Virus record (IMG/VR): IMGVR_UViG_3300006802_000086 | Coordinates: 1 to 64,000 of that record | Source: a virus | Strand: one strand, 5' to 3' | Length of the DNA stretch: 64,000 bases | Made by a program: the position numbers and the translations under genes | Notes under the pieces: generated by a model | Told to the model about the DNA's origin: nothing | Seen by the model: only the letters and a program-made list of their open reading frames with translations | Database searches by the model: none | Shown here: positions 2 through 62,970 of the stretch, one piece after another | How positions within the stretch are numbered: the stretch's first letter is position 1 | How the letters are laid out: each line of letters starts with the position of its first letter

Positions 2-601
2 GATGTTGTTATGAATGATAATATTAATAGAACTAGTCAAACAGTTCCTTCTTCAATTGCAGCATTAAAAGCTCTAGGATATAATGATTCAATTGCATAT
101 CCTTGGTTTGCACCTGCAGGATTTAATAGGGGTGCGTTAAATGATGTTATTAATTCAAAAGTAAGGCTAAACGCCGAAGATAGAAATATTCTTTATGAAT
201 CTAGAATTAATCCTATCGCAAACTTTCCAGACGGCGGTTTTGTTATTTTTGGCCAAAAAACATTGCAACAAGATCGATCATCACTGGACAGAGTTAACGT
301 AAGAAGAATGCTTTTAGAAGTAAAAAGAGTCATATCTGATATTGCTAACAAATTAATTTTTGAAAACAATACGCCGCAAACACGCGCAAGATTTGTTGCT
401 CAAGCAACACCTTTACTAGGCGCAATTCAATCGCAACAAGGTATTGATCAATTTAAAATTGTTATGGATACGTCTAACAATTCTGAGTTGGATATTGAAG
501 AAAACAAGCTTAACGGAAGAATTATTTTAGTCCCTACAAGAGTAGCAGAATTTATCTCTATTGACTTTATAATTACTAACGCAGGTGTTAGCTTTGAATA
601 A
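2..601 (+). CDS. Tail sheath protein 1, C-terminal part (5'-truncated by window)
   Basis: Sheath C-terminal motifs PWFAPAGFNRG, INPI, GQKTLQ, LDRVNVRRMLL, FENN, PTRVAEFI; frame is open to the window edge. Confidence 0.92.
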   Translation, partial: DVVMNDNINRTSQTVPSSIAALKALGYNDSIAYPWFAPAGFNRGALNDVINSKVRLNAEDRNILYESRINPIANFPDGGFVIFGQKTLQQDRSSLDRVNVRRMLLEVKRVISDIANKLIFENNTPQTRARFVAQATPLLGAIQSQQGIDQFKIVMDTSNNSELDIEENKLNGRIILVPTRVAEFISIDFIITNAGVSFE

Positions 602-625
602 CGCATACAAATGGAGTAAACTATT

Positions 626-3601
626 ATGGCAGAATTAACATTTAAATCACCGGGTATCAGTACTAGAGAAATTGATTTATCACAAACAAGATCTTCTAGG
701 CCTGTCGGTATACCAGCTGGAATTATTGGAACTTCTTTAGAAGGTCCAGCTTTTATCCCTTTGACATTTGCAAATTTTAATGATTTTGTAACAACATTTG
801 GGGCATCAGATGGTGAAAAATTCGGGCCAATTGCTGTAAGTCAATGGTTGACAAATGCTCAGTCAGTTACCTATATGAAAGTCCTAGGAATAGGCAACGG
901 AAAACAAAAAAATGCAACAACAGGTAAAGTAACAAATGCAGGTTTTGTTGTGGGTGATAGAATAATTCAAAATAATGGTTATGCAGGTGACAATCCTTAC
1001 GCCAATACAGGAGCCGGCTCTGTTGAAGGTAGAACTTACTTTTTAGGAAGCTTTATGTCAGAATCTGCAGGAAGTACTATTTTTTCTGATCCGGGCATAC
1101 AAACAGGGCCTAATTCAGTTTCTATTCTTAGAGGGGTAATCTTAGCACCTAGTGGCGTAGTTCTTCATTTGTCTGGTAATAATATGGCAGATACATCTGC
1201 ACCAAGTAAGTCGCAAACTGCAACTAACGGAAGCACCCTGGCCGGCCAAAAAGGTTCGCTTACTGGATCGATTAATATAAGCAGCCAAGAATTTGTAATG
1301 ATGATGAATGGTTATTCCAATTCTGATACTGGAAAGACGACAGTATTAACTGCATCTTTAGATATGACAGCACCAAATTATTTTAAAAACGTATTTAACA
1401 CAGATCCGCTTAAGATAGAAGAAGAAGGTCACTATCTTTATGCATCATACGACATATACCCAGATATGGCAACAGTCACAGGAAGTGGAGTTGTTGAAGC
1501 TAGTGGTGTGAGTGGAAACTTAGAAGACGCTATATTTTTATTAACATCGTCAGCAGGAAGAGGATCAGCTAGCTCGAGCACAGAAGTTGACTATGAAGAT
1601 TTTGAATACAGATATACGCATGCATCTTCTCCTTTTGTAATATCTCAAAATTTTGGTAATGCTCCTCATAACTTGTTTAAAATTCATGCGCTGTCAGATG
1701 GCGAAGGTATATCTAATAGATATAAGATATCAATTGAAAATATTAAAAAATCAACATCAACTTCTGACTTGTACGGTACTTTTGATTTAGTTATTAGAGA
1801 CTTTTATGATACAGATCCTTATCCAGTTGTTTTGGAAAGTTTTAGAGGTTTAAGTCTTGACCCCGGGTCTGATCGTTATATTGCCAGGGTTATTGGTGAT
1901 CAAAACATAAGATATAATTTTGATGTTGCCGAAACATCACAAAAAATTATTGTTGAAGGGAATCATCCAGTTAGATCTAGATATATTAGAATCGAAACGA
2001 CCCTAGCACTAGAAGACGCGTCGATTCCTAAAACCTCGTTACCTTTTGGGTTTAGAGGTCCTAATCATTTAGTTACTAGTGGTTCTTTGTTGGCAACAGT
2101 AGACCCGGGTAGTAATTTAAGTAATACAGACATTACTAAAAGAATAATTGAACCGCCGATTCCTTATAGGGAAAGTGTTGCTATTGGTACTGGTTTGCTT
2201 AAAAAGTCTGATTCTAGATATTACTGGGGCGTGCAAACTATGCGTAAAACAAACCCGGCGCAACCTAATTTGACTAGTCTTTTTGACAATAGTTTTGATG
2301 CATTTACTAAGCATTTTCCAAATAATAGAATTAACACGCTTAATTTTTCAGTTGGTAATAATGCAGGTACAGCAAACGTAGCCGGTAGCATTCTAGACAG
2401 TGATTTATTTAATAAAAATAAGTTTTCTTTAGAAAATATACAAGTTCGTACCGGCTCAGATGGCCTCGCGGATCCGGATCAATGGCTAAGTGCTTCTTAT
2501 GTTAGAGATGGCAATATTACACCATCCAGTACAAACAAAACAAGGGCATTTGAAGAAAGCGATTTAGGTAAAGTTGCTAATACTAAGTTTGCTAAATTTA
2601 CCATGATTCTCCAAGGTGGGTTTAACGGTGTTAATATTTTCAATAGAGAAAAGAAAAACCTGACAAATATAGCAGCAAGAAGAGAATATATTGAGTCACA
2701 ATCTACAGCCACTCAACAAAGTACAATTGCGGCATATAGAAAAGCTATCGACTTAATGGCATCAAAAACAGATGTAGATATTCAATTACTAGCATTACCT
2801 GGAATTAGACACCCGTCAATTACTGATTATGCAATTCAAAAAGTAGAAGATAGATTTGATGCTATGTATATTATGGATATCGAAGAAGTAGATCAATTAA
2901 ATAATGTTATAACTTCTTCTGTGCAAAAGCCAAATGTTCAAAATACAGTTGTTAACTTAAGTGGAAGATCCCTTAATTCGTCATTTGCTGCAGCGTATTT
3001 TCCGGATGTTATTGTTACAGATCCAACAACAAAAACATTAGTACAAGTTCCTCCATCAGTTGCAGTGTTAGGTGCATACTCATTTAATGATAAGGTTTCT
3101 CACCCTTGGTTTGCACCGGCAGGTTATGCAAGAGGTGCTTTAAATAGCGTCGAATTACCTTCTGTTAAACTTAATAGAACTAACTTAGATGACTTGTATG
3201 GCGCAGACATCAATCCTATTACAGAATTTCCTAATACCGGTGTGACTATATGGGGACAAAAAACTTTGCTGGCGTCTAATTCAGCATTAGACAGAATTAA
3301 TGTTCGTAGGCTTTTAATTGATGTTCGTAGAAAAGTTAGAAGTGTTGCAAACAGTCTTTTGTTCGAACCTAACAGGGAAGAAACATTAGATAAATTTAAT
3401 TCATTGGTTAACCCTATTTTACAAAGAGTTCAAGAACAAAACGGTGTTGACAGATACAAAGTCATTATTGACACAACGACTACAACTCAAGCAGATGTTG
3501 AAAATAATACAATACGTGGAAAAGTTTATTTGCAGCCTACACGTTCAATTGAGTTTGTTTCACTAGATTTTGTTGTTACAAATGCTGGTGCAAATATTTA
3601 A
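626..3601 (+). CDS. Tail sheath protein 2 (991 aa)
   Basis: N-terminal SPGISTREID; C-terminal PWFAPAGYARG, WGQKTL, LDRINVRRLL, FEPN, PTRSIEFV; SD GGAG. Confidence 0.95.
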   Translation: MAELTFKSPGISTREIDLSQTRSSRPVGIPAGIIGTSLEGPAFIPLTFANFNDFVTTFGASDGEKFGPIAVSQWLTNAQSVTYMKVLGIGNGKQKNATTGKVTNAGFVVGDRIIQNNGYAGDNPYANTGAGSVEGRTYFLGSFMSESAGSTIFSDPGIQTGPNSVSILRGVILAPSGVVLHLSGNNMADTSAPSKSQTATNGSTLAGQKGSLTGSINISSQEFVMMMNGYSNSDTGKTTVLTASLDMTAPNYFKNVFNTDPLKIEEEGHYLYASYDIYPDMATVTGSGVVEASGVSGNLEDAIFLLTSSAGRGSASSSTEVDYEDFEYRYTHASSPFVISQNFGNAPHNLFKIHALSDGEGISNRYKISIENIKKSTSTSDLYGTFDLVIRDFYDTDPYPVVLESFRGLSLDPGSDRYIARVIGDQNIRYNFDVAETSQKIIVEGNHPVRSRYIRIETTLALEDASIPKTSLPFGFRGPNHLVTSGSLLATVDPGSNLSNTDITKRIIEPPIPYRESVAIGTGLLKKSDSRYYWGVQTMRKTNPAQPNLTSLFDNSFDAFTKHFPNNRINTLNFSVGNNAGTANVAGSILDSDLFNKNKFSLENIQVRTGSDGLADPDQWLSASYVRDGNITPSSTNKTRAFEESDLGKVANTKFAKFTMILQGGFNGVNIFNREKKNLTNIAARREYIESQSTATQQSTIAAYRKAIDLMASKTDVDIQLLALPGIRHPSITDYAIQKVEDRFDAMYIMDIEEVDQLNNVITSSVQKPNVQNTVVNLSGRSLNSSFAAAYFPDVIVTDPTTKTLVQVPPSVAVLGAYSFNDKVSHPWFAPAGYARGALNSVELPSVKLNRTNLDDLYGADINPITEFPNTGVTIWGQKTLLASNSALDRINVRRLLIDVRRKVRSVANSLLFEPNREETLDKFNSLVNPILQRVQEQNGVDRYKVIIDTTTTTQADVENNTIRGKVYLQPTRSIEFVSLDFVVTNAGANI

Positions 3602-3638
3602 TACCATATATATATTTATATAAAAACAGGAGACTATT

Positions 3639-4130
3639 ATGGCAGAAACACTTTCAGTAACAGACTTACTACCAAATAAGTTTGAACCGAAAAGAGATTA
3701 TAGATGGGTTTTAGCAATTGAAGGTATTGATTCATTTTTAATATCTGATACAAAAAGACCTGACATATCAATTGACAAAGATGAAATCCCTTTTATTAAT
3801 AGCTATAGAGTTGTTTCTAAAGGTAAGGTTAAGTTTGGCGGAATATCAGTTAAGCTTCATGATCCGATTGCACCTTCAGGTGCACAGCAAGTAATGGAAT
3901 GGATCAGAACTCACTATGAGTCTGTTTCAGGAAGAGCCGGATATGCAGATTTTTACAAAAGAGATCTTCAACTTAAGCTTTTAGATCCTATTGGTACAGT
4001 TATTGAATTGTGGGATATTAAAGGCGCAATCATTACGAGCGCTAATTTTGGAACACTTAGTTACGGTAGTGGAAATATGTTATCAATCGATCTATCATTA
4101 GAAGTTGATAATTGTGTATTGCAATTCTAA
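3639..4130 (+). CDS. Tail tube protein (T4 gp19-like)
   Basis: 163 aa directly after the sheath; FEPKR, DPIAPSGAQQVMEW, YKRD, LDPIG..IE.W; SD AGGAG. Confidence 0.88.
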   Translation: MAETLSVTDLLPNKFEPKRDYRWVLAIEGIDSFLISDTKRPDISIDKDEIPFINSYRVVSKGKVKFGGISVKLHDPIAPSGAQQVMEWIRTHYESVSGRAGYADFYKRDLQLKLLDPIGTVIELWDIKGAIITSANFGTLSYGSGNMLSIDLSLEVDNCVLQF

Positions 4131-4215
4131 GCCTTGATTTAAATAAAAATTGTTTACTTTGTTATAAATCCTCTGTATTGTTATAGAGGATTTTTTATTT
4201 AGGAGAGACATACAT

Positions 4216-5019
4216 ATGCAAAACAAAAACATGCCTACTAGTAATATTTTAAAAGATGATTTTGGTTGGGAGGTACCATTTGAGACAGTACCTTTGCCTT
4301 CTAGAGGCGTTGTATACCACCCGGACAGCAAGTTATATAATAAAGAGTCTATTAGCATAAAAGCAATGACAGCGCTAGAAGAAGACATACTGTCTAGTCA
4401 GGCTTTTATTAAAGAAGGTACATCAGTAGCACGTGCAATTCAGTCTTGTATCGTAGAAGACAATGTTGATGTTGATGAAATGATATCAGGTGATAAAAAT
4501 GCACTTATGATATCGATGAGAATTACAGGTTACGGCTCTAGATACCCTGTTTTGCATTCATGCGCAAACTGTGGAGCTCAAAATGAAGTTGACGTCCAGC
4601 TAAACGAGTTAGCTATTAATCGATTAAAAGAAGAGCCAATCGTCAAAGGAGAAAATAAGTTTAAATTTCTGTTACCTGTCTCAGGAAAAGAAGTTATTTT
4701 TAAATTTTTAACCGGATATGATGAAAAAGAAGAAAAAATTAAAAAGCAAAGAATGAAAAGCATGGGTATTAATTTAGATAATAACGTTACTTCCTTTTTG
4801 GAACAATCAATATTATCAATTGACAATATTACCGATAAAAATAAAATATCGCATTTTATAAAACACATGCCTGCTATGGATTCTAGAAAACTAAGACTTC
4901 ATATAATAAATCAGGAGCCGGGGATAGATATGACTTGGAAATATGTTTGCAATTCTTGCACTCATAATAATGAGTTAGGCATACCAATATCTACAGAGTT
5001 TTTTTGGCCCAGTACATAG
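4216..5019 (+). CDS. Baseplate hub / tail assembly chaperone (T4 gp26-like)
   Basis: VPLPSRG, MTALEEDIL, RITGYG, two CxxC pairs, C-terminal FFWP; lies between tube and tape measure. Confidence 0.75.
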   Translation: MQNKNMPTSNILKDDFGWEVPFETVPLPSRGVVYHPDSKLYNKESISIKAMTALEEDILSSQAFIKEGTSVARAIQSCIVEDNVDVDEMISGDKNALMISMRITGYGSRYPVLHSCANCGAQNEVDVQLNELAINRLKEEPIVKGENKFKFLLPVSGKEVIFKFLTGYDEKEEKIKKQRMKSMGINLDNNVTSFLEQSILSIDNITDKNKISHFIKHMPAMDSRKLRLHIINQEPGIDMTWKYVCNSCTHNNELGIPISTEFFWPST

Positions 5020-26322: not shown

Positions 26323-27291
26323 ATGAAAATAACAAAAAAGCAACTAAATGCTCTAATTGAAAGTTTTTTATTGAATGAGGATAGCGAGGTTGATTACGAA
26401 TCTGAAGTGGGCGAAGAAGAAAATGAAACATCCGACAAAAAATCTTCTAGAGGCTACACTAAAGTTAAATATGCATCTCCATACTTAGGTAATACACTTT
26501 CTGAATTCCAGAACTGGGCGAGTAAAAATGGAATGCCTGGAGAGTTTATGAATTATCTAGATCATCTAGAAAATATTACAAATCGATCGAAAGAGCTTGG
26601 TAACTTAACAGACTTAACAAGCGCCGGAGGTGTCGGTGCAATAGGCGGACAATTGTCAACTGAACAGGGAAGAAAAGCTTATCAACAGGAACAAACTGAC
26701 GGTATAGCACTTTTTAGAAAATTTATGACTAATGCAAATGGGCCATATACGCAACAAGCATTTAGTGCCATTACCGACAAAGCCAAATCAATTATTGAAT
26801 ATATTTATTCTAACGGAGGTGCACCAGTCGGACCGGGAACTGAATGGTCACCATCTGCACTTATTGACAAAGTTAGAGGTTCACTCGCGTCAGTGTTTGG
26901 TGACACATCCCCTAGGTTTATGTGCTCTGACTCCGGTGCCATGATTGCATTAGTTCCAATGACTGTTGACTATCAAAAAAATAAGTATGTACCTGCTTTA
27001 GAGAAAGATATGCCTCACCCTGTCGACGTCGAGCTTAAAAAGATCAGGTCTACATTATCTAAGCCACCAGGATATCAGTCTGATATTGATATTAAAATAC
27101 CTGGTAGCGATAATTATCTTGAGCCGGCATATATCGTTCCTATTCGATCTATAAACGACATAGCTACAAGCCTATCTCTTGTGGATAAATTTAATGAAAA
27201 AAATCAACTTACTAAAAGTGATATCGATCAACAAATTAGAGATAGAGGTCAAGACTTAGTAACAGTTGTAATTGCATTCACGAAGGTATAG
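26323..27291 (+). CDS. Leader-bearing hypothetical protein (MKITKKQLNALIESFLLNE)
   Basis: Shared N-terminal motif followed by an acidic linker; SD AGGAG. Confidence 0.6.
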   Translation: MKITKKQLNALIESFLLNEDSEVDYESEVGEEENETSDKKSSRGYTKVKYASPYLGNTLSEFQNWASKNGMPGEFMNYLDHLENITNRSKELGNLTDLTSAGGVGAIGGQLSTEQGRKAYQQEQTDGIALFRKFMTNANGPYTQQAFSAITDKAKSIIEYIYSNGGAPVGPGTEWSPSALIDKVRGSLASVFGDTSPRFMCSDSGAMIALVPMTVDYQKNKYVPALEKDMPHPVDVELKKIRSTLSKPPGYQSDIDIKIPGSDNYLEPAYIVPIRSINDIATSLSLVDKFNEKNQLTKSDIDQQIRDRGQDLVTVVIAFTKV

Positions 27292-27404: not shown

Positions 27405-28007
27405 ATGCTTTGGAAATATAATACGTCACCCCTCATTAAAGAGTACGAACTTCACATGCAACCCGTTATTGTAACAGTCAATAAGTTTGATGAAGAGTCT
27501 GCAAAAGAGTTTCGAAACAAAGTAGCATTAGCTCACAACACTGGCCAAAAAATCATTCCAGTTGTTATTGACTCTTACGGAGGACAAGTATATTCCCTAA
27601 TGTCAATGATATCGACAATCAAAGGGTCAGAGTTGCCTATCGCAACAATCGTCCAAGGTAAGGCTATGAGCTGTGGTGCTATTCTTTTCTCATTTGGAAA
27701 GGAAGGATATCGTTTCATTGATAGAAATGCAACAGTTATGATTCATGATGTTTCTTCAGGACAACTAGGCAAAGTTGATGAAGTTGTTGCATCAGCGAAA
27801 GAAACTGAAAGATTAAATGAAATTGTTTATAAAATGATGGCGCAGAATTGTGGTAAAAAAGACGATTACTTTTTAAAACTAGTAGACAAGAAAAAACACG
27901 CTGACTGGTTTTTGGATGCTGAAGAATGTATAAAACATGATCTGGCAAATCATATTAGAATACCAAAAATTAACGTCAATGTGGATGTTAACATTGATTT
28001 TGAATAG
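27405..28007 (+). CDS. clpP: ClpP-like serine protease
   Basis: IDSYGG, GKAMSCG (catalytic Ser), VMIHD (His), DWFLDAEE. Confidence 0.85.
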   Translation: MLWKYNTSPLIKEYELHMQPVIVTVNKFDEESAKEFRNKVALAHNTGQKIIPVVIDSYGGQVYSLMSMISTIKGSELPIATIVQGKAMSCGAILFSFGKEGYRFIDRNATVMIHDVSSGQLGKVDEVVASAKETERLNEIVYKMMAQNCGKKDDYFLKLVDKKKHADWFLDAEECIKHDLANHIRIPKINVNVDVNIDFE

Positions 28008-28035: not shown

Positions 28036-28500
28036 ATGGTAAATGAGTTAGCCCAGTATATTGGATGTACTAAAGCACTAGCGACATGGGTGCATGCTGC
28101 ACATCACGTTGCAAAAGGAAAAGGATTTATTGGTGATCATGAAAGTCTTTATGGAAAAATGTATGAGGAAATAATCGATGACTTTGATAAGCTAATCGAA
28201 AAATCTATTGTTATTACAGACTCAGAAGAGATAGCATGTCCTGTTACAATTACGAAAAATTCATTGCCGTTTGTGTCTAAATTTCAGTCACCTGCAAATC
28301 TAGATTCTGACATAATTGCTGTAACTGCATTAGACTTTATGCGTCACCATGTTGATCATTTAACCTCAGTGTATCACATACTAGATAGAGCCGGTGCACT
28401 AACGCTTGGTATGGACGATTATTTGGCTGCTGCAGCAAATCAATATGAAGAATATATATATCTGCTAGGACAACGTGTTAAGAGCGGGAGGGCATATTAA
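28036..28500 (+). CDS. Dps/ferritin-like protein
   Basis: HAAHHVAKGKGFIGDH...YEEIIDDFDKLIEK matches the Dps ferroxidase pattern. Confidence 0.7.
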   Translation: MVNELAQYIGCTKALATWVHAAHHVAKGKGFIGDHESLYGKMYEEIIDDFDKLIEKSIVITDSEEIACPVTITKNSLPFVSKFQSPANLDSDIIAVTALDFMRHHVDHLTSVYHILDRAGALTLGMDDYLAAAANQYEEYIYLLGQRVKSGRAY

Positions 28501-29393
28501 TGGATAAGGTTTTTTATAATGAAAGTTCTGCAGCGAATCTAGGTTGGAAACCAGACTGGTTCAGTTGCACTGATTTTGACGATGATTTGGTAGAAGCAAT
28601 TTCAGCATGGCAAAAGAAAAATGGTCTCAAACCAGATGGTTTATGTGGTCCAGGAACTTTTAGAAGAATTTACACAGAAAGACAAAGCGAAATTGACGAT
28701 TATATACCTGATCTGATTCCGGACAAAGACGAATCCTTTATTGTACACCAAGGAAATTTTTTTCCTATTGACTGGCCAAAAGTTGTGCTTTGGTCAGAAG
28801 AAAAAGGTTATAAAGCACGCAATGGTTTTACTTCTTATTTCGAACCTCGTGATATTAAAATGTTTGTTAATCATTGGGATGTATGCTTAAACAGTAAGAC
28901 ATGTTATAAAGTTTTAGCAAAAAGAGGATTAGCCGTTCATTTTCTTATTGATAATGATGGAACAATTTATCAGTTATTAGATATGAATCATGCTGCTTAT
29001 CATGCAGGAAGCAAGAAACACAATCATAGTTCAATCGGTGTCGAGATATCAAATGCATATGACCCCAAATATCAAAGCTGGTATCAGAAAAACGGCTATG
29101 GTGAAAGACCAATACTCACAGAAGAGACTGTCCATGGCAAAAGCTTAGGTGATTTTACAGGTTTTTATGATGTACAACTTAATGCGCTTAAAGCGCTTTG
29201 GAAGGCTGTTCACGAAGCAACAGGAATTCCTCTTAAGTGTCCTACCGATAAAGAGGGCAACACACTTAAAAAAGTATCAACATCAGCTGCAGCAAACAAT
29301 TTCAAAGGTTTTGTTAGTCATTATCACTTGACAAATAGAAAAATTGATTGTGCAGGCTTAGATATAAATGCAATGCTAAAAGATATTAAATAA
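28500..29393 (+). CDS. N-acetylmuramoyl-L-alanine amidase (Amidase_2) with peptidoglycan-binding domain; likely endolysin
   Basis: WQKKNGLKPDGLCGPGT; VNHWD, VHFLIDNDGTIYQL, AYHAG, SIGVEI, SHY...KIDC. Confidence 0.88.
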   Translation: MDKVFYNESSAANLGWKPDWFSCTDFDDDLVEAISAWQKKNGLKPDGLCGPGTFRRIYTERQSEIDDYIPDLIPDKDESFIVHQGNFFPIDWPKVVLWSEEKGYKARNGFTSYFEPRDIKMFVNHWDVCLNSKTCYKVLAKRGLAVHFLIDNDGTIYQLLDMNHAAYHAGSKKHNHSSIGVEISNAYDPKYQSWYQKNGYGERPILTEETVHGKSLGDFTGFYDVQLNALKALWKAVHEATGIPLKCPTDKEGNTLKKVSTSAAANNFKGFVSHYHLTNRKIDCAGLDINAMLKDIK

Positions 29394-45210: not shown

Positions 45211-48200
45211 TTAAGCTAATGCTTTCTTGTTAGGCACTATTTTAACTAAAATTAAGAAAACTGTATGTGATCTGTTAATTGATATCTTTTTCATAGTTCC
45301 ACCTGTTGTCGATGTGTTGTCTAAATTACCACCAATTAATTTTCCTCCTGAGTAAACGTTCATATGTGCACCTGACTGAGGCTCCGATCCTGCAAATTTT
45401 TTAAAGGTTTTCATACCGCAACCAGAAGGAAGTCCTCTTTTAGAACTATAACCGTTAAGCGAAAAGACGCCGTCTAGAAGGTTTAAGTCAGATCTAGATT
45501 CGACCTCTTCCCTAGTAAAGGGTAGCAAAACTACTTGCCCGATAAAACTTTCAGGATCATTTTCAACTTCTTGTCTTTTTAACATTAATTGTGCCCACGG
45601 GTATGAAATCCCCATTTGCTTTGGCACGCTGTTTACTATATCGTAGGCAGGATGCGAAGGAGTTACCATTGCATTGAAAGTATGTCCACTCCAAGCTACT
45701 CTATTTAAGTACTTCCAACTATCTTTAATATTGACAGGCATGAATGTATCTGGGTGCATCAGCGCTATTTTTCCGTCACCATGATTTGTAATTGCTTGCT
45801 TGACAACAATATCATTTATTTTCTTAAGACCTTCTTCTGACTTTTCGCCAAACCCTGTGATTTGTGAAAGTAATCTCTCACCCTCAGCAGCACCTGCAGA
45901 CATGTCCAGCTGTTCAAACTTAATAGGTAAAGAATCCTCATCTAAAAATGCATGTTCCTTCGGATTAAAATTTTTCTTAGAAGCTTTTGAAGAGTTGTCC
46001 TTGACAGAATTCGAAGACTTCGATACTTGTTTTTCTTTTTCAATAATTTTTTTCTGAAGTTCACTATTTCCTTTAAACGATTTACTTACTGCATCTGGGC
46101 CGCTATAATTACCGTCCTTAATATCTTTGTATACTTTGGCAGGATTAATATAGTTTTCTTTAAATAAATAATTTCTAATTTTACGAACTGATTCATTCAA
46201 AGGTTCAATCTTAAAATTCTTGTCAACACCTCTTTTTGCCTGTCCTATCTGTCCGGACACGGAATCGACAGCAATAACAATGTCATCAATATAGAATTTA
46301 TAATATCTGTTTTTCATACCTCTGCCAGCTGTATATGTTCCAGGCTCACCTTTTTTATCTCCGTAAGCCATTTCCATTTTTCCACCGGTATCTTGATTTT
46401 TCTTTTTATTGAATTCCTGCGTAGCTTTTTTAATAGCTTCCGGGTCTTGTGCGAGTCTTACCATCTCTGCAACGCCTGAAGGATTTTTCTTTTTCGGATC
46501 ATTAAGTACTAAACTAGCCACTTGTGCAGCGTTATTTTTAAATTTAAGAATCGTTTCTTTTTTAACACCCTTGTCAATTGCTGCTTTTATAATCATGTCA
46601 ATATTTTTTTCGATCCAGGCCACCCAAGCTTTGTCTGTGTTAGGCCCCCAATCTCCATCAACTGTAGTACCAATAACACCTTGGACATATTCAACATCTT
46701 TTTTATTATTTTCTATTAAGACACTTTTAATTGCTTTTCTTAAGCTTGCTTCTGTTAAAATCATTTTACCTTTCCTTGTTTTAAAAATATTTTCTGCCAT
46801 GGCTTTTTGCTTAGGCATAATTTCTGATTCAATTGTTGCAACAAATTGCTCACCAGGCTTTTCATCAACATGCACACCATCTCTCGAGCTAGTAACATTT
46901 GACTCAAACCACGGGTAGGGATCGATAACATTAATTCTTCCTGACATTCCTAATTGAGACTCAACAGCATCAATACCTGCAACAATCTCTCTGTTTCTTT
47001 TTGCTCGAGTTGCTTTAAATTTTGAAACTTCTCGCTCAGGTTTTCCAGGGGTGTTGACATATGTTGTTTTCTCTGTAGGTTTAACTGCAGGCGGCGCCAA
47101 GACCCAAGTTATTTGTGCGTCTTCTGGGGCATTTTGTAAAATATCTTTTGCCAAATAACTAGCTCTGCTAGAACCGTTGCCGCCTAGCGTAAGGATAATA
47201 TTGTTTGTTCTGCTGACTGCATCAATAATTTTATCTTCCCCAAACTCACTCATGACGCCTGCTGGTGTAGCTCCGTTCTTCTGAAAAAAGTTCTTTCCCT
47301 TCGTAGCTGTGCCTAGGCGTTTTCTAATTCCTTTTCCTAGACCGCTGTTGCCTTGACTGTCTGCAATGTATACATACGGGAGAGGTTCGTCAGAAGATTC
47401 TCTCTGTTGTTTCTGTTCGCCACTTTCTCCTTCAAATCCTAATAAAAATAATTTAGCTTCTTCGTGCCTTCTCTTTTCTAGGCCCTGCACATATTCACCC
47501 TTGCTAGTTCTAGGTTTTGCATCTATTACATCAGCTGCTTCTTTATAACGACCTTGATTAATTAATTGCGTTATAGACTCGCCTTTATTATTTTTAAATT
47601 TATTTAAAGCACTTGCACCTCCATTAAAGCAATAACTTGCTAATGCAACAAACATGTTATGAGTGATTGGTGCTTTTAATTGTGACTTAAATACTCGTGT
47701 ATGTTTTGCAACGTCGCTTCCAAAGAGTTCTAGAGCTTGTTGTAAATTCATTTCCTTTGATCCACTTCCTAAAAATTCTTTAAATTTTTCTCTTTCGTTT
47801 GATCTAATTAAGTGCCCAATGCCAATTGTTGGATATCCGCTTGACTCTTCATAGCTATTTATTGTTCTCCCGCCTTTGTCATCATAAACTTTTGATCTAA
47901 AACCTTCACCGCCTTTTATAAATACTTGAATTTCTTTAGACACGTCTTCGTATTGACTAGCACTTTTTAATGTTTGATCCGCAGTAAATTTTCCACCACC
48001 AGCCTTGTTAATTTTTGCCTCAAGACCTTTGACAGCTTTGTTAACAATTTTAGCGTCTGAATTTGAATTATTACCTGGCGAAGTAGGAATATTAAGTTTT
48101 GACTTTGATTTCACAGCTTTCTTAAGTGTGTCAGCTTTTTTCTTGATAGTATCCTTAAACTCACTGCTAATTTTCTCTGCACCTTTTATGCTCCCAGATT

Positions 48201-49272
48201 CAATTCCTTTTTGGACTTTGTCAATAATTTTGCTTACATCTAATTTTCTCTCTCTTAGAATTTTATATCTATGTCTTTTTAGAATTCTTTGTTCTTTTAA
48301 GTATTCCCCGCCTTTTCCTCTAGGTCTTTGGTAAACTTCACCATCAGTATCAATAGCAACTGCAACATCATCAATCCAAAATTTTAAATAGTCTTTGTCG
48401 ATACCTTTGCCTGTCTCTGCTTTTTTAAACCCCATTAATACTGGCTCGTTATTTGTTCCAAATTTTTTAAGATACTCTTCATACTCTTCTTTAAAAGTTG
48501 TATATGCTAACTTAAAATGGTCATTGTTAAAACTACCTCGCCTTCCTAAGGTTTTGTCATCGCTAGGCAGGTCTTTAAGCGCATTTGCAATTTCTTCTTT
48601 AGATTTATTATCATTAATCCAGTCTCGAAACATATCACCCTTATCTTGGTTTAAATCTTTAGGAATTCTTTTAAGCTGCTCATCTGTAAATTCATATTTT
48701 TTATCTTTTGAAGATTTCGATTGTGATTTTGTTCCACCATATTTTTTATCTAAATTCTCACCACCTTTCTTGTTGATAGGTGTCCAAGGTCCATTATTTT
48801 TACTGTAACTCCACCCAAATTCTGCAGAAGGATCTTTTTTGTATTTGTAAACACCGTCGCCATCATCGTATATTTTTTCTTTAGAAAAATTTTCTATCTT
48901 TCCTATTTGTTCAGCGGCCGGCCCTGAAATAACTTTATATTTGCCATTACCTAAGTCTTCGTAAGTAAAGCCTGATAAGTCTTTGTCAGATTTAATCCCA
49001 AGTTCTTGAGCATTTTTACCTAAAGTTTCTTTTTTGGTAAATTCTTCATAATAAGTTTTAAGCATGTAATAAGCTACTCTTTTCCCATCAGGAACATCTG
49101 CCTTATCTAAAGCTGCCTTTATATTTGGTGCTTTTGTAGATTTAAAACGCAAAGCATTGTCATTAGAGCCAAAACCTGTGTCAAAGCCTATATACTTTTT
49201 TGATTCTTCTTGCTCGCGAAGAAGTCTTTTGAGTGATTTAATTTTAATAAGTTTGTTTAGATTGTTATTCAT
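45211..49272 (-). CDS. Multidomain cell-envelope hydrolase: GH24 lysozyme, SGNH esterase, PG-binding domain and possible amidase-like C-terminus (1353 aa)
   Basis: EGFRSKVYDD..GYPTIGIGH..ALASYCFN..GLEKRRHEEAKLF; IADSQG/LGGN/DGVH; VDGDWGPNT; AWSG...H...IGGN. Confidence 0.75.
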   Translation of the reverse strand: MNNNLNKLIKIKSLKRLLREQEESKKYIGFDTGFGSNDNALRFKSTKAPNIKAALDKADVPDGKRVAYYMLKTYYEEFTKKETLGKNAQELGIKSDKDLSGFTYEDLGNGKYKVISGPAAEQIGKIENFSKEKIYDDGDGVYKYKKDPSAEFGWSYSKNNGPWTPINKKGGENLDKKYGGTKSQSKSSKDKKYEFTDEQLKRIPKDLNQDKGDMFRDWINDNKSKEEIANALKDLPSDDKTLGRRGSFNNDHFKLAYTTFKEEYEEYLKKFGTNNEPVLMGFKKAETGKGIDKDYLKFWIDDVAVAIDTDGEVYQRPRGKGGEYLKEQRILKRHRYKILRERKLDVSKIIDKVQKGIESGSIKGAEKISSEFKDTIKKKADTLKKAVKSKSKLNIPTSPGNNSNSDAKIVNKAVKGLEAKINKAGGGKFTADQTLKSASQYEDVSKEIQVFIKGGEGFRSKVYDDKGGRTINSYEESSGYPTIGIGHLIRSNEREKFKEFLGSGSKEMNLQQALELFGSDVAKHTRVFKSQLKAPITHNMFVALASYCFNGGASALNKFKNNKGESITQLINQGRYKEAADVIDAKPRTSKGEYVQGLEKRRHEEAKLFLLGFEGESGEQKQQRESSDEPLPYVYIADSQGNSGLGKGIRKRLGTATKGKNFFQKNGATPAGVMSEFGEDKIIDAVSRTNNIILTLGGNGSSRASYLAKDILQNAPEDAQITWVLAPPAVKPTEKTTYVNTPGKPEREVSKFKATRAKRNREIVAGIDAVESQLGMSGRINVIDPYPWFESNVTSSRDGVHVDEKPGEQFVATIESEIMPKQKAMAENIFKTRKGKMILTEASLRKAIKSVLIENNKKDVEYVQGVIGTTVDGDWGPNTDKAWVAWIEKNIDMIIKAAIDKGVKKETILKFKNNAAQVASLVLNDPKKKNPSGVAEMVRLAQDPEAIKKATQEFNKKKNQDTGGKMEMAYGDKKGEPGTYTAGRGMKNRYYKFYIDDIVIAVDSVSGQIGQAKRGVDKNFKIEPLNESVRKIRNYLFKENYINPAKVYKDIKDGNYSGPDAVSKSFKGNSELQKKIIEKEKQVSKSSNSVKDNSSKASKKNFNPKEHAFLDEDSLPIKFEQLDMSAGAAEGERLLSQITGFGEKSEEGLKKINDIVVKQAITNHGDGKIALMHPDTFMPVNIKDSWKYLNRVAWSGHTFNAMVTPSHPAYDIVNSVPKQMGISYPWAQLMLKRQEVENDPESFIGQVVLLPFTREEVESRSDLNLLDGVFSLNGYSSKRGLPSGCGMKTFKKFAGSEPQSGAHMNVYSGGKLIGGNLDNTSTTGGTMKKISINRSHTVFLILVKIVPNKKALA

Positions 49273-49353
49273 ATAACTCTGCCTCTAGAATATTTTGATA
49301 AACATATTATATATATGTTCTATAATTTTAAAATAATAGCAAAGCAATTAATT

Positions 49354-53116: not shown

Positions 53117-53164
53117 ATGAAGCTGTCAAGAATTCAATTACGAAGATTGATTTTTGAAGCTTAA
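53117..53164 (+). other. Leader-only mini-ORF MKLSRIQLRRLIFEA
   Basis: Hand-translated; SD GGGAG upstream; matches the shared leader. Confidence 0.55.
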
Positions 53165-53195: not shown

Positions 53196-54089
53196 ATGCT
53201 AATTAAAAAATCTGAATTAAAAAAATTAATTGAAAGCTTTTTAAACGAAGAAGAGGATACACCTAAAAAACCTACAATCGTTGAAAAACCAAAAACAAAG
53301 GCCTTCAATCCTTCAACAAATCCTCAGCAGAATAAAATGTTTTACCCAGTAATGTCTGGAAATCATGAAGGAGGATTTTTAGCAGAAGTTGAAGGATCTG
53401 GCTTCTATATGTTATTAGATGAAGACGAGGTCTCAAGATGGAATAATCCAGATGCAGTAGTTAAAAAAATCGATGCAGTTAAAAGAGCCATAGAGGCTAA
53501 CGGCTTTTCCATACCTGAAGCAAAGTTAATCAAACATGTTAATGACGGAAGAGTTGTATTTGCAACAAAACTAGTAGAACCGGTATCATCTGACGAAAAA
53601 GTAATTTACAAAATATATGACGCAGTTTACGACACTATTTTAGATAGTTCAGCAACAGCACTCGGCTTTGATATTTTAAGCCCTTCACTTCAACTATTAA
53701 GCAGTGAAATCAATGCAGCGCAAGCAGCAAAAAAAATGTCCCAAGGAAGATTTTTAGATGCCGGAATTGCAGCCATCGCATCATTACCCTATTTTGTACC
53801 CGGAAAGGTATTAACCCCTCTTAAATCACTAAGTGTAACCAATCAATCTCGAGCGATGAACTTGATTTATAGTTCTCCGGCGATCCAACAAGCCTTGTGG
53901 TCAATTGTTCATTGGCTTCAAGAACACGAAATGCAAATTAGGGAAGTGCTTGAAAAGATAGTGTCTGTATGTGAGTTCACATACGGCGAATTTAAAGAAG
54001 GAGCAGGAATGGCCATTGACTATACATGGCGTCTACTTAAGGCATTTTTTAAAAGCTTGACAAATGAAGAATTTAAACTGCCTAGTTAA
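53196..54089 (+). CDS. Leader-bearing hypothetical protein with a pre-toxin-TG-like hydrophobic segment
   Basis: MLIKKSELKKLIESFLNEEE; GRFLDAGIAAIASLP. Confidence 0.55.
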   Translation: MLIKKSELKKLIESFLNEEEDTPKKPTIVEKPKTKAFNPSTNPQQNKMFYPVMSGNHEGGFLAEVEGSGFYMLLDEDEVSRWNNPDAVVKKIDAVKRAIEANGFSIPEAKLIKHVNDGRVVFATKLVEPVSSDEKVIYKIYDAVYDTILDSSATALGFDILSPSLQLLSSEINAAQAAKKMSQGRFLDAGIAAIASLPYFVPGKVLTPLKSLSVTNQSRAMNLIYSSPAIQQALWSIVHWLQEHEMQIREVLEKIVSVCEFTYGEFKEGAGMAIDYTWRLLKAFFKSLTNEEFKLPS

Positions 54090-61624: not shown

Positions 61625-62536
61625 ATGTCATACACTACACCAATAAACTATATTTTTATTGAAGGGCCTGACTGCAGTGGGAAAACAACACTTTATGAAA
61701 TGATCCACAAAGAGTCAGGTTATCAATGGAATATTCAAGATCGATCAGCGTTATCAATGTTAATCCATGCCCGATATTATGGTCGTGATACATTTAATCA
61801 TGTTGAACAGTTAAAAAAAGAGCTATACAACATTAACAATCAGTTGGTTATATGTCTACCGGATTGGAAAGTGATTGTTGAACGATTTCAAAAACGCGGC
61901 GACCCTATTCAAAATATTACTAGCCTTCGCAAAATCTATGAACTGTTTGAAGAGGCAGTACAAGAGTTTCAAAACTATGCAAACGTAACAGTTATTAGAC
62001 ATGAAGTAAATAAGCACACAGTAAAAGATTTAGTTACATGGTTTAAATATTTTGAAAGACGTTCTTTGAGTGAGTTGCAAACTTATGTATTACAAACAGT
62101 TGCAGCAAGTGGTAAAAAAGAAGCTTTAGGTTTTAATTTTGTTCATTATGACACCGGTGATTTTAATGATATTAATAAACAGATGTTATTGTATGATAAA
62201 GAAAAAGATTATTATCAAAAAATTGAGACTGCAGTTTTTGACAAGATTAAATCAGAAATGAAAGGAGAAAACGAATATGAAAGACCGGAAGAATTGGACT
62301 CGAGAAGATTTATTTATACTGATGATTCTTGTATTAGTCTTGCTCATTTTTTAGTTCGTGACGGTTATATGGATGCTAAATTCTTTTTGCGATCATCAAA
62401 TGTTAAAGATACATTGCGATATGATTTAAATTTTGTTAAACACTTGTCAGGCGAGGTTTTTCGTTATTTCAAATGCGATAGACAAGGTGACTATTGCAAA
62501 ATTGAAGTTGTCATTAATTCAGGACATGTAATATAA
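61625..62536 (+). CDS. dNMP kinase fused to a thymidylate-synthase-like catalytic core
   Basis: IEGPDCSGKTT, QDRS..S..Y, RGD; C-terminal DSRRF..SCI..HFLVRDG..FLRSSNV...RYDL...SGHV. Confidence 0.7.
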   Translation: MSYTTPINYIFIEGPDCSGKTTLYEMIHKESGYQWNIQDRSALSMLIHARYYGRDTFNHVEQLKKELYNINNQLVICLPDWKVIVERFQKRGDPIQNITSLRKIYELFEEAVQEFQNYANVTVIRHEVNKHTVKDLVTWFKYFERRSLSELQTYVLQTVAASGKKEALGFNFVHYDTGDFNDINKQMLLYDKEKDYYQKIETAVFDKIKSEMKGENEYERPEELDSRRFIYTDDSCISLAHFLVRDGYMDAKFFLRSSNVKDTLRYDLNFVKHLSGEVFRYFKCDRQGDYCKIEVVINSGHVI

Positions 62537-62548
62537 AAAAGGAGAGAG

Positions 62549-62722
62549 ATGATTAAAACGTTAATGCTAACAGCCATGTTAGCCAATCCACAAGTTGAAG
62601 AAATTCGACCAGACAATGAAAAGAAAATTAAAACAATTGCAATTTCTGCAACTTTTATTATTGTTGTAAACTTACTGGCATATTCACCAATCATTGCAGC
62701 AAACATTAACAAAGGAGAATAA
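62549..62722 (+). CDS. Small membrane protein (57 aa), missing from the ORF track
   Basis: SD AAGGAG; hydrophobic IAISATFIIVVNLLAYSPIIAA; fills the operon gap. Confidence 0.55.
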   Translation: MIKTLMLTAMLANPQVEEIRPDNEKKIKTIAISATFIIVVNLLAYSPIIAANINKGE

Positions 62723-62725
62723 TAA

Positions 62726-62968
62726 ATGAAAAATGAAGATTTAATACCCGTAACGGATAACACATTGAAAGATTTTGTGAACGCAAGAAAAGAAAACAAA
62801 CCGATTGCGATACAGATGCAAAGATGGATAGAACACAAGAAGAAATATTTCTCAAATTTTCTATCTTATGCATTTGACAAAAAAGGAAATCTATATAGGC
62901 GAGATTTTTTAACAAAAAACGGATGGGTAAAAGTTAACACCCTAGACGAAAACGATCTAAAGAGGTAA
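62726..62968 (+). CDS. Hypothetical protein
   Basis: SD AAAGGAG; in operon. Confidence 0.55.
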   Translation: MKNEDLIPVTDNTLKDFVNARKENKPIAIQMQRWIEHKKKYFSNFLSYAFDKKGNLYRRDFLTKNGWVKVNTLDENDLKR

Positions 62969-62970
62969 TA

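Follow-up and report, generated by a model that had tools for sequence, protein, structure and literature searches.

The closest described counterparts of the protein treated here come from well-studied phages: gp16 of T7 is located inside the head and contains a wall-cutting domain (PMC8954989), the tail lysin Gp44 of phi11 carries an SGNH domain (PMC4876445), and internal proteins of T4 bear a capsid targeting sequence (CTS) that is removed by gp21 (PMC9026906). Here, we analysed a 64-kb window of viral DNA, i.e., the first 64 kb (positions 1 to 64,000) of the 78,992-bp IMG/VR virus record IMGVR_UViG_3300006802_000086, the source of which is an uncultured marine jumbo myovirus; CheckV places the completeness of the record at 26%, implying a genome of ~300 kb. 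The minus strand of this window encodes P0001 (45211..49272, stop codon included), an open reading frame (ORF) of 1353 amino acids (aa) that translates without an internal stop. Our analysis reveals P0001 to be a three-enzyme peptidoglycan hydrolase, modular and of two-unit origin, that occupies a conserved antisense slot; an initial annotation, made from the sequence alone, had called it a multi-enzyme, peptidoglycan-attacking protein, and the domain assignments support this.

P0001 resembles the virion lysins Gp49 and Tal Gp44 (SGNH/GDSL) of S. aureus phage phi11 (PMC4876445) in being a large multi-domain protein with a glycan cutter, a putative CHAP/NlpC-P60-type peptide cutter, and an SGNH domain, the modules of which are likewise shuffled between relatives. 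It differs from them in having no tail-tip, Tal, or tape-measure homology, in being encoded on the opposite strand and not within the tail module, in possessing N-terminal and internal leader helices, and in belonging to a marine jumbo myovirus with another host. T7 gp16 (PMC8954989) is of similar size (1318 versus 1353 aa), carries an N-terminal lytic transglycosylase, and illustrates both that wall cutting at entry can be done by a protein packed in the capsid and that a wall-cutting module moves between proteins of related phages; however, no sequence or fold relation to gp16 was found, P0001 is a chain of globular enzymes with no predicted membrane-spanning C-terminus, and the phage in question is a myovirus and not a podovirus.

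Two units and the helix at their junction

Sequence comparisons favour a reading of P0001 as two tagged units fused in head-to-tail order. Unit A (residues 1-836) would comprise an N-terminal tag, an N-terminal domain, a first repeat copy, and a GH24 muramidase followed directly by an SGNH domain, with unit B (residues 837-1353) comprising a leader-type amphipathic helix, a PG_binding_1-like motif, a second repeat copy, and an NlpC/P60-CHAP-like domain with Ser at the nucleophile position. When residues 610-1353 were compared exhaustively with 1.84 billion cluster representatives, just 44 relatives were returned. Full-length collinear homologues exist (P0003, 52% identity; P0004, 43% identity), as do proteins corresponding to either unit. 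Residue 1 of P0014 (536 aa) pairs with residue 837 of P0001, and the alignment runs on through the remainder, with P0027, P0033, P0035, and P0038 likewise beginning at the 837 helix; P0016 (224 aa) consists of a leader and an SGNH domain and ends where the junction linker begins; and P0019 (670 aa) consists of a leader, GH24 (298-463), and SGNH (485-668), and ends at the junction. A leader plus a CHAP-like domain makes up P0024, P0025, P0030, and P0034. As separate proteins end before the helix (P0016, P0019) or start with it (P0014), the two-unit fusion is supported. The initial annotation had proposed a fusion of several leader-tagged genes, possibly split at position 46764 in homologues; P0014 indeed starts exactly at the equivalent of M837, P0016 and P0019 end at the junction, and both halves are found free elsewhere, but the fused parts are two units, not a three-enzyme kit. 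Neither position-specific scoring matrix (PSSM) scans nor homologue comparison detected a tag between GH24 and SGNH, and these two domains always occur together (P0001, P0003, P0004, P0007, P0009, and P0019).

At least 11 other proteins of the record begin with a ~19-residue M-K-I-[ST]-[RK]-x-Q-L-x-x-L-I-x-E... pattern, for which a leader hidden Markov model (HMM) scores 21-28 bits at those 11 N-termini and almost nowhere else. Built from the 11 tags of the genome, this HMM missed the P0001 motifs within the long ORF, and window-wise PSSMs were used instead. By this measure, the internal leader-like helix at the junction of the two units (residues 837-854; 46711..46764, minus strand) stands out: residues 837-855 score 9.2-11.4 bits, with ~0.1 such windows expected per protein, and the corresponding helix scores 13-23 bits in P0003, P0004, P0005, P0006, P0008, P0011, P0012, and P0018, compared to a null maximum of 11.3 in 12,751 windows. 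It is the top leader-PSSM window in nearly every fused homologue and is kept in all of them, whatever flanks it, i.e., after SGNH in P0003 to P0007 and P0009 to P0013, and after a glucosaminidase in P0008, P0015, and P0018. Residues T840, E841, L844, R845, L852, and E854 are invariant in alignment A3, and distant architectures preserve the pattern too. The tag of the second unit would thus, on the best reading of these alignments, have been retained under selection. As the helix follows a linker (residues 827-839) with a predicted local distance difference test (pLDDT) score below 50, it is probably exposed.

The leader-like helix at the N-terminus of P0001 (residues 7-23, ending LLREQEE; 49204..49254, minus strand) scores 5.2 bits in the PSSM at a pLDDT of ~50; the N-terminal leader of orthologue P0003 scores 12.5 bits at position 2, and L17, L18, E20, and Q21 are invariant in alignment A3. 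Four leader or LxE segments had been proposed initially, from which the helix at 837-854 emerges clearly and the N-terminal one as a borderline case; the others, KILRE and LNESVRKIRNYLFKE, are parts of the repeat, occupying equivalent positions within its two copies, and were indistinguishable from background in the leader PSSM scans. In design, the tag recalls the T4 CTS of IPI-III and Alt, removed by gp21 (PMC9026906), in that both are short, N-terminal, and amphipathic, and head otherwise unrelated proteins, with most copies of the tag described here ending hydrophobic-x-(x)-Glu. Unlike the CTS, it is ~19 residues long, has another sequence, survives inside fused proteins, and occurs in a fragment (~26% of the genome) without a gp21-type protease.

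Enzymatic and accessory domains

Two AlphaFold models based on homologue alignments (residues 1-860 and 800-1353) display confident globular parts at residues 27-130, 456-612, 630-826 (pLDDT >90), and ~1100-1349 (pLDDT >90), and stretches of pLDDT <50 at residues 133-193, 234-293, 384-439, 616-625, and 827-839. In Pfam searches with six separate P0001 segments (E up to 10), only GH24 was matched, and PDB sequence searches with the single protein or a profile gave no match. The GH24 muramidase (residues 456-605; 47458..47907, minus strand) matches PF00959 with an E-value of 6.5e-18 and 65.7 bits versus a cut-off of 22.3; the fold is matched by Foldseek to 6et6 (E 8.6e-8, TMt 0.77), and PHROGs endolysin families cover this part of the protein (phrog_7 endolysin, E 4.1e-27). 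The GH24 lysozyme of the initial annotation is hence confirmed by both Pfam and fold. Residues E456, D465, and T482 lie at the T4-lysozyme catalytic positions within an E-G-x(7)-D ... T-I-G-I-G-H context, and are those we take to be equivalent to E11, D20, and T26 of that enzyme.

Residues 630-826 (46795..47385, minus strand) are modelled as a hydrolase of SGNH fold that retains the four catalytic blocks, i.e., S639 (ADSQG), G667, N699 (GGNG), and D798/H801 (DGVH), an assignment made purely by fold match. Foldseek returned GDSL/SGNH esterases (8ik1, E 2.4e-5, TMt 0.54; 7e16, E 1.3e-4), platelet-activating factor (PAF)-acetylhydrolases, the sialate esterase 7pzg, and the peptidoglycan O-acetyltransferase PatB (7trr, E 3.8e-4). 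The positions S639, G667, N699, and D798-x-x-H801 are kept in 18/18 domain-bearing homologues (alignment A2). The SGNH hydrolase first proposed is thus upheld by its fold and catalytic blocks, but not by Pfam, since a search with the isolated domain matched no SGNH/GDSL family at E ≤10; sub-threshold matches to Pfam GDSL/SGNH occur in its remote relatives P0040 and P0042.

MurNAc C-6 O-acetylation blocks lysozymes (PMC6174289). The SGNH domain accompanies 8/8 muramidase- or transglycosylase-type forms and 0/3 glucosaminidase forms, counted over 11 related, non-independent proteins, and this pairing with muramidase-type forms fits the O-acetylation block of lysozymes. The SGNH domain of P0001 may plausibly remove the O-acetyl groups that block muramidases. 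As in Ape1/PatB (PMC6174289, PDB 7trr), the P0001 domain combines an SGNH fold with a complete Ser-Gly-Asn-His set; its direct fusion partner is a muramidase that would be blocked by O-acetylation of the substrate. The domain has no sequence-level relation to these proteins, and generic esterases and lipases match its fold equally or better.

The C-terminal domain (residues 1105-1349; 45226..45960, minus strand) is modelled at pLDDT >90 and contains invariant W1194-S1195, R1233, E1256, H1303, N1305, and N1316. In VIA-align, for which Z 8 is the level where chance arrangements become unlikely, NlpC/P60 and CHAP chains fill ~30 of the top 50 rows at Z 5.0-6.8 over 104-132 aligned residues (e.g., 6bim, Z 6.8; CwlO, 6.4; LysGH15 CHAP, 5.0). 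A language-model (Atlas) search with this domain placed viral CHAP clusters first (0.92), and BFVD gave only weak CHAP matches (E 0.015-0.065). An NlpC/P60-CHAP-like fold is therefore probable for the modelled domain, and is put no higher than this because the scores are middling. The CHAP-like guess of the initial annotation agrees with the fold search, and the AWS..H..IGGN motifs that it pointed out are invariant in the family; its other guess, DUF2272, fell away, as the PF10030 HMM matched nothing anywhere in the record with E-values of up to 10.

The predicted structure has S1195 (AWS) beginning a helix and H1303 beginning a strand (1302-1308), with N1316 terminating the strand that follows (1311-1317); S1195 is invariant in 12/12 members of alignment A4 that cover the position. 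The order S1195-H1303-N1316 would correspond to a papain-like triad with Ser in place of Cys, an equivalence drawn from topology and not from superposition. The P0001 string PGD..v..(n)..H.n.Y.G...IGGN resembles pGDlvff..HVgIY.G..fiHA of NlpC/P60-CHAP proteins. Likeness to NlpC/P60 and CHAP enzymes (6bim, 8wt3 CwlO, 7cfl, PlyGRCS 8h1i, and LysGH15 CHAP 4olk) extends over ~110-120 residues of the fold and includes a His at the start of a strand with a polar residue 13 positions on. Unlike these enzymes, P0001 has an invariant Ser (AWS) and not Cys at the nucleophile position as well as a ~100-residue helical insert between Ser and His, and none of the HMMs of these families picks up its domain. 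On the modelled structure, the domain would define a family without a Pfam model, with a CHAP-like fold and an invariant Ser for Cys.

The remaining parts of P0001 comprise an N-terminal domain, a repeat, and a PG-binding-like motif. The N-terminal domain (residues 27-130; 48883..49194, minus strand; pLDDT 62-86) is common to P0003, P0004, P0005, P0008, P0018, and P0061 and has no family match; an Atlas search on residues 185-400 gave no usable match. A 90-residue module occurs twice, at residues 287-373 (48154..48414, minus strand; an FWIDD..RG beta unit followed by the helix with KILRE) and at residues 982-1067 (46072..46329, minus strand; FYIDD..RG followed by the helix LNESVRKIRNYLFKE), with 29% identity between copies (E 1e-8); the duplication noticed initially is confirmed, and sequence comparison identifies it as a true repeat. 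The PG_binding_1-like motif (residues 856-895, VDGDWGPNTDKAW..; 46588..46707, minus strand) is a mixed case: the phmmer relatives P0031 and P0043 that align to these residues carry PF01471, but P0001 itself (residues 836-980) has no Pfam match to PF01471. Neither a tape-measure nor a baseplate-spike reading of P0001 was retained, as it does not form a long helical rod, has no gp5/gp27-type domains, and is encoded elsewhere than in the tail module.

The antisense slot and its genomic setting

One metagenome scan yielded related phage contigs (L002-L005, L007) in which gene order is kept from a fibre-like gene to an epimerase gene. In three of these (L003-L005), identity to the proteins of the window is 86-88% for the ThyX-like and NDT-like neighbours and 63% for the epimerase, and a lone opposite-strand gene encoding 979 aa again lies between the NDT-like and epimerase genes; its product shares only the SGNH module and the junction helix with P0001. 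Across the family, the glycan cutters comprise GH24, GH19, SLT-like, GRYQ-type, and glucosaminidase domains, and the peptide cutters are CHAP-like or M23. At the level of sequence, related phages thus keep the antisense slot and exchange its enzyme modules. No close relatives were found among 50,697 phage records, in which only the GH24 part was matched at ≤34% identity, and two IMG/VR scans for P0001 relatives found none; the phage has no near kin among cultured phages.

The claim that P0001 is the sole credible minus-strand gene was confirmed by an ORF survey of the fragment: it is the only minus-strand ORF of ≥100 aa outside longer plus-strand ORFs, bar a dubious 115-aa ORF (62491-62838), and all other credible genes lie on the plus strand. 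The GC skew flips across 45211-49272, where the GC content equals that of the genome. The dubious frame (62491-62838, minus strand) is hydrophobic and of low complexity and is the sole frame in a region (62537-62970, 434 bp) without a plus-strand ORF; it is probably not a gene. In another assembly of the same phage (a 29,168-bp contig), the P0001 gene is called as two proteins, P0060 (581 aa; identical to P0001 residues 1-570, then 11 divergent residues) and P0002 (759 aa; starting at P0001 residue 595). These two calls imply a frameshift inside GH24, which may be either an assembly error or a natural variant. A 103,774-bp contig encodes a protein identical to P0001.

Upstream of P0001, 44 nt from its ATG, lies a palindromic ATATATAT/CATATATA promoter-like motif (49309..49317). 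All 11 plus-strand ATATATAT sites in the record are ≤100 nt, and typically ~33 nt, upstream of a gene start; they include positions 3606, 28452, 35011, 42312, 49309, and 58623 of the window and 65782 of the record, and the genes that they precede encode the tail tube, the amidase, a fibre-like protein, two leader-bearing proteins, and the product of the gene at 65815. Its placement makes ATATATAT a candidate late-promoter element for the phage; no such preference for sites upstream of genes is seen in the record for TATAAATA, the late-promoter motif of T4.

The window further encodes tail sheath, tube, and hub proteins (11-5019), a gp32-like single-stranded DNA-binding protein, a UvsX-like recombinase, a DnaB-like helicase, a ribonucleotide reductase, and a DnaE-type polymerase, and contains no tRNA. 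A 297-aa Amidase_2 plus PG_binding_1 protein (28500-29393), which has no tag and is preceded by the ATATATAT motif, is likely an ordinary endolysin. A tagged, acid-rich protein of 322 aa (26323-27291) is immediately followed by a ClpP-type protease (27405-28007; PF00574, E 3e-24; PHROG head maturation protease), and these two could be a scaffold/protease pair.

The 11 tagged proteins start at window positions 26323, 42345, 50433, 53196, 54107, 58655, and 59228 and at record positions 68936, 69386, 70020, and 75117; they are otherwise unrelated, their tag is basic and amphipathic, and none of those protein bodies that were tested matched a Pfam or PHROG family. A weaker twelfth copy is found at the start of a small ORF at 53117. 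Reading the tag as a Tat or Sec signal was ruled out, since it is charged along its entire length and in many copies has KK in place of RR. In the related phages, tagged genes (L003:1116-2621 and L003:10039-10998) occur where the window has different tagged genes; in addition, L005:10432-11295 is a second gene on the rare strand of the lysin; its product has the tag at its N-terminus (MYISETKLRKIVR...) and is similar to the tagged protein encoded at 53196 of the window. As related phages carry different tagged genes at corresponding positions, the tagged genes appear to form a variable, mobile set lying between core genes that are conserved.

Deployment of P0001 and rival readings

On balance, we lean towards P0001 being a two-unit modular wall-degrading enzyme that is late, carried in the virion, loaded by means of its tag, and active at entry. 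It would be made late, loaded into the virion via the tag with which at least 11 further proteins of the phage begin, and used to open the wall at entry, with the glycan cutter, the esterase, and the peptide cutter acting together; a cut at the internal tag would be compatible with this sequence of events, though we consider such a cut doubtful. We infer a late, virion-carried entry lysin because of the separate endolysin candidate, the size and architecture of a virion lysin, the ATATATAT motif, and the T4-CTS-like design of the tag. Virion carriage itself is somewhat probable.

Several observations weigh against this interpretation. P0001 has no homology to any known structural protein, its gene is surrounded by genes for nucleotide metabolism and replication, a long way from those of the tail (11-5019), and its N-terminal tag is borderline. 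As ATATATAT is a palindrome in a divergent intergenic region, the copy at 49309 cannot be assigned to a strand. A gp21-type (Peptidase_S77) head protease is absent from the 79-kb record, i.e., from ~26% of the genome, and the co-occurrence of SGNH with particular glycosidases comes from related proteins. With respect to the C-terminal domain, its best fold matches stay below Z 8; Foldseek on the PDB with the C-terminal half gave no match at E up to 0.001; Pfam, PF00877 and PF05257 included, gave no relevant match on 14 C-terminal family members at E up to 1; the PDB sequence profile of the family gave no match; and hhalign gave a probability of 0.4% for a match between the family and the phi11 CHAP domain. 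A Ser at the Cys position could also mean an inactive binding domain.

In the account first offered for this gene, a head protease would cut P0001 in the capsid at L-x-E or leader sites to release a de-acetylase, a muramidase, and an amidase. The internal tag is conserved where it is no longer the start of a protein, at each of the invariant positions from T840 to E854 given above, which argues for a continuing role; the helix is probably exposed after its low-confidence linker; and most tags of this phage end as does the T4 CTS that gp21 removes (PMC9026906). Against such processing, GH24 and SGNH have no tag or low-confidence leader-type helix between them, which would leave at most two products, and KILRE and LNESV... 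are internal to the repeat and not above background. The L-x-E cleavage rule borrowed from T4 also lacks support here: [LIVM]-x-E occurs 12 times in P0001 versus 19.1 +/- 3.9 expected, i.e., without enrichment, and a depletion test on L-x-E gave no consistent signal (11 versus 18.5 +/- 3.4 expected in P0001; 78 versus 62.8 +/- 6.8 in the tagged proteins). The sole protease in the record is ClpP-type, with no gp21-type enzyme found. Overall, we regard this account as unlikely. An internal start is a different route to a free second unit, in which the ATG at 46764, with its Shine-Dalgarno (SD)-like AAGGA, would yield a separate leader-tagged 517-aa protein alongside the full-length one. The SD-like sequence noted initially is present (AGGAAAGGT), AAGGAAAGG precedes M837, and the product would begin exactly like P0014; yet 10.5% of internal in-frame ATGs have an SD match of the same quality, and the position of M837 is Thr in P0004 and Phe or Leu in P0007, P0009, P0010, P0011, P0012, and P0013. 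Given these replacements of Met, it is the helix and not the start that is conserved, and an internal start is very improbable.

P0001 could instead act outside the virion, as a lysis-stage or accessory hydrolase suited to an unusual, e.g., O-acetylated, wall, with the tag and the junction helix serving as structural or docking helices. Its recognisable domains are all endolysin-type (phrog_7, E 4.1e-27), its gene lies outside the structural module, and the ATATATAT motif also precedes the amidase-type endolysin candidate. That candidate (28500-29393), however, already supplies a canonical endolysin, P0001 has no N-terminal signal or SAR segment, and its tag is common to many non-lytic proteins. 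The size of P0001 (1353 aa) and its combination of three lytic activities with non-catalytic N-terminal and repeat modules are those typically seen in virion-associated lysins and not in endolysins. We therefore hold a lysis-stage role to be improbable and retain the virion-carried entry enzyme as our preferred interpretation.

Multi-domain phage lysins are already known; the retained junction tag, the swapped slot, and the Ser-type CHAP-like family go beyond routine annotation. One further possibility, to which we give little weight, is that the ~19-residue helix is a portable address-and-processing tag of a group of marine jumbo phages, the internal copy of which would be kept upon fusion of two tagged genes because it is still read, such that two separately released enzymes would be delivered into the capsid and then the host envelope. 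These would be a muramidase-esterase and a Ser-type CHAP-like peptidase, both from one antisense, rapidly reshuffled gene.

Ultimately, as the P0001 junction keeps the tag of many unrelated proteins and both halves exist free elsewhere, the family offers a natural experiment on the role of the tag. The strict pairing of SGNH with muramidase-type forms makes a de-O-acetylase role directly testable, and the modules of P0001 could yield enzymes active on lysozyme-resistant walls. The exchange of enzyme modules within a slot whose neighbours remain 86-88% identical suggests fast adaptation of these phages to the wall chemistry of their hosts.

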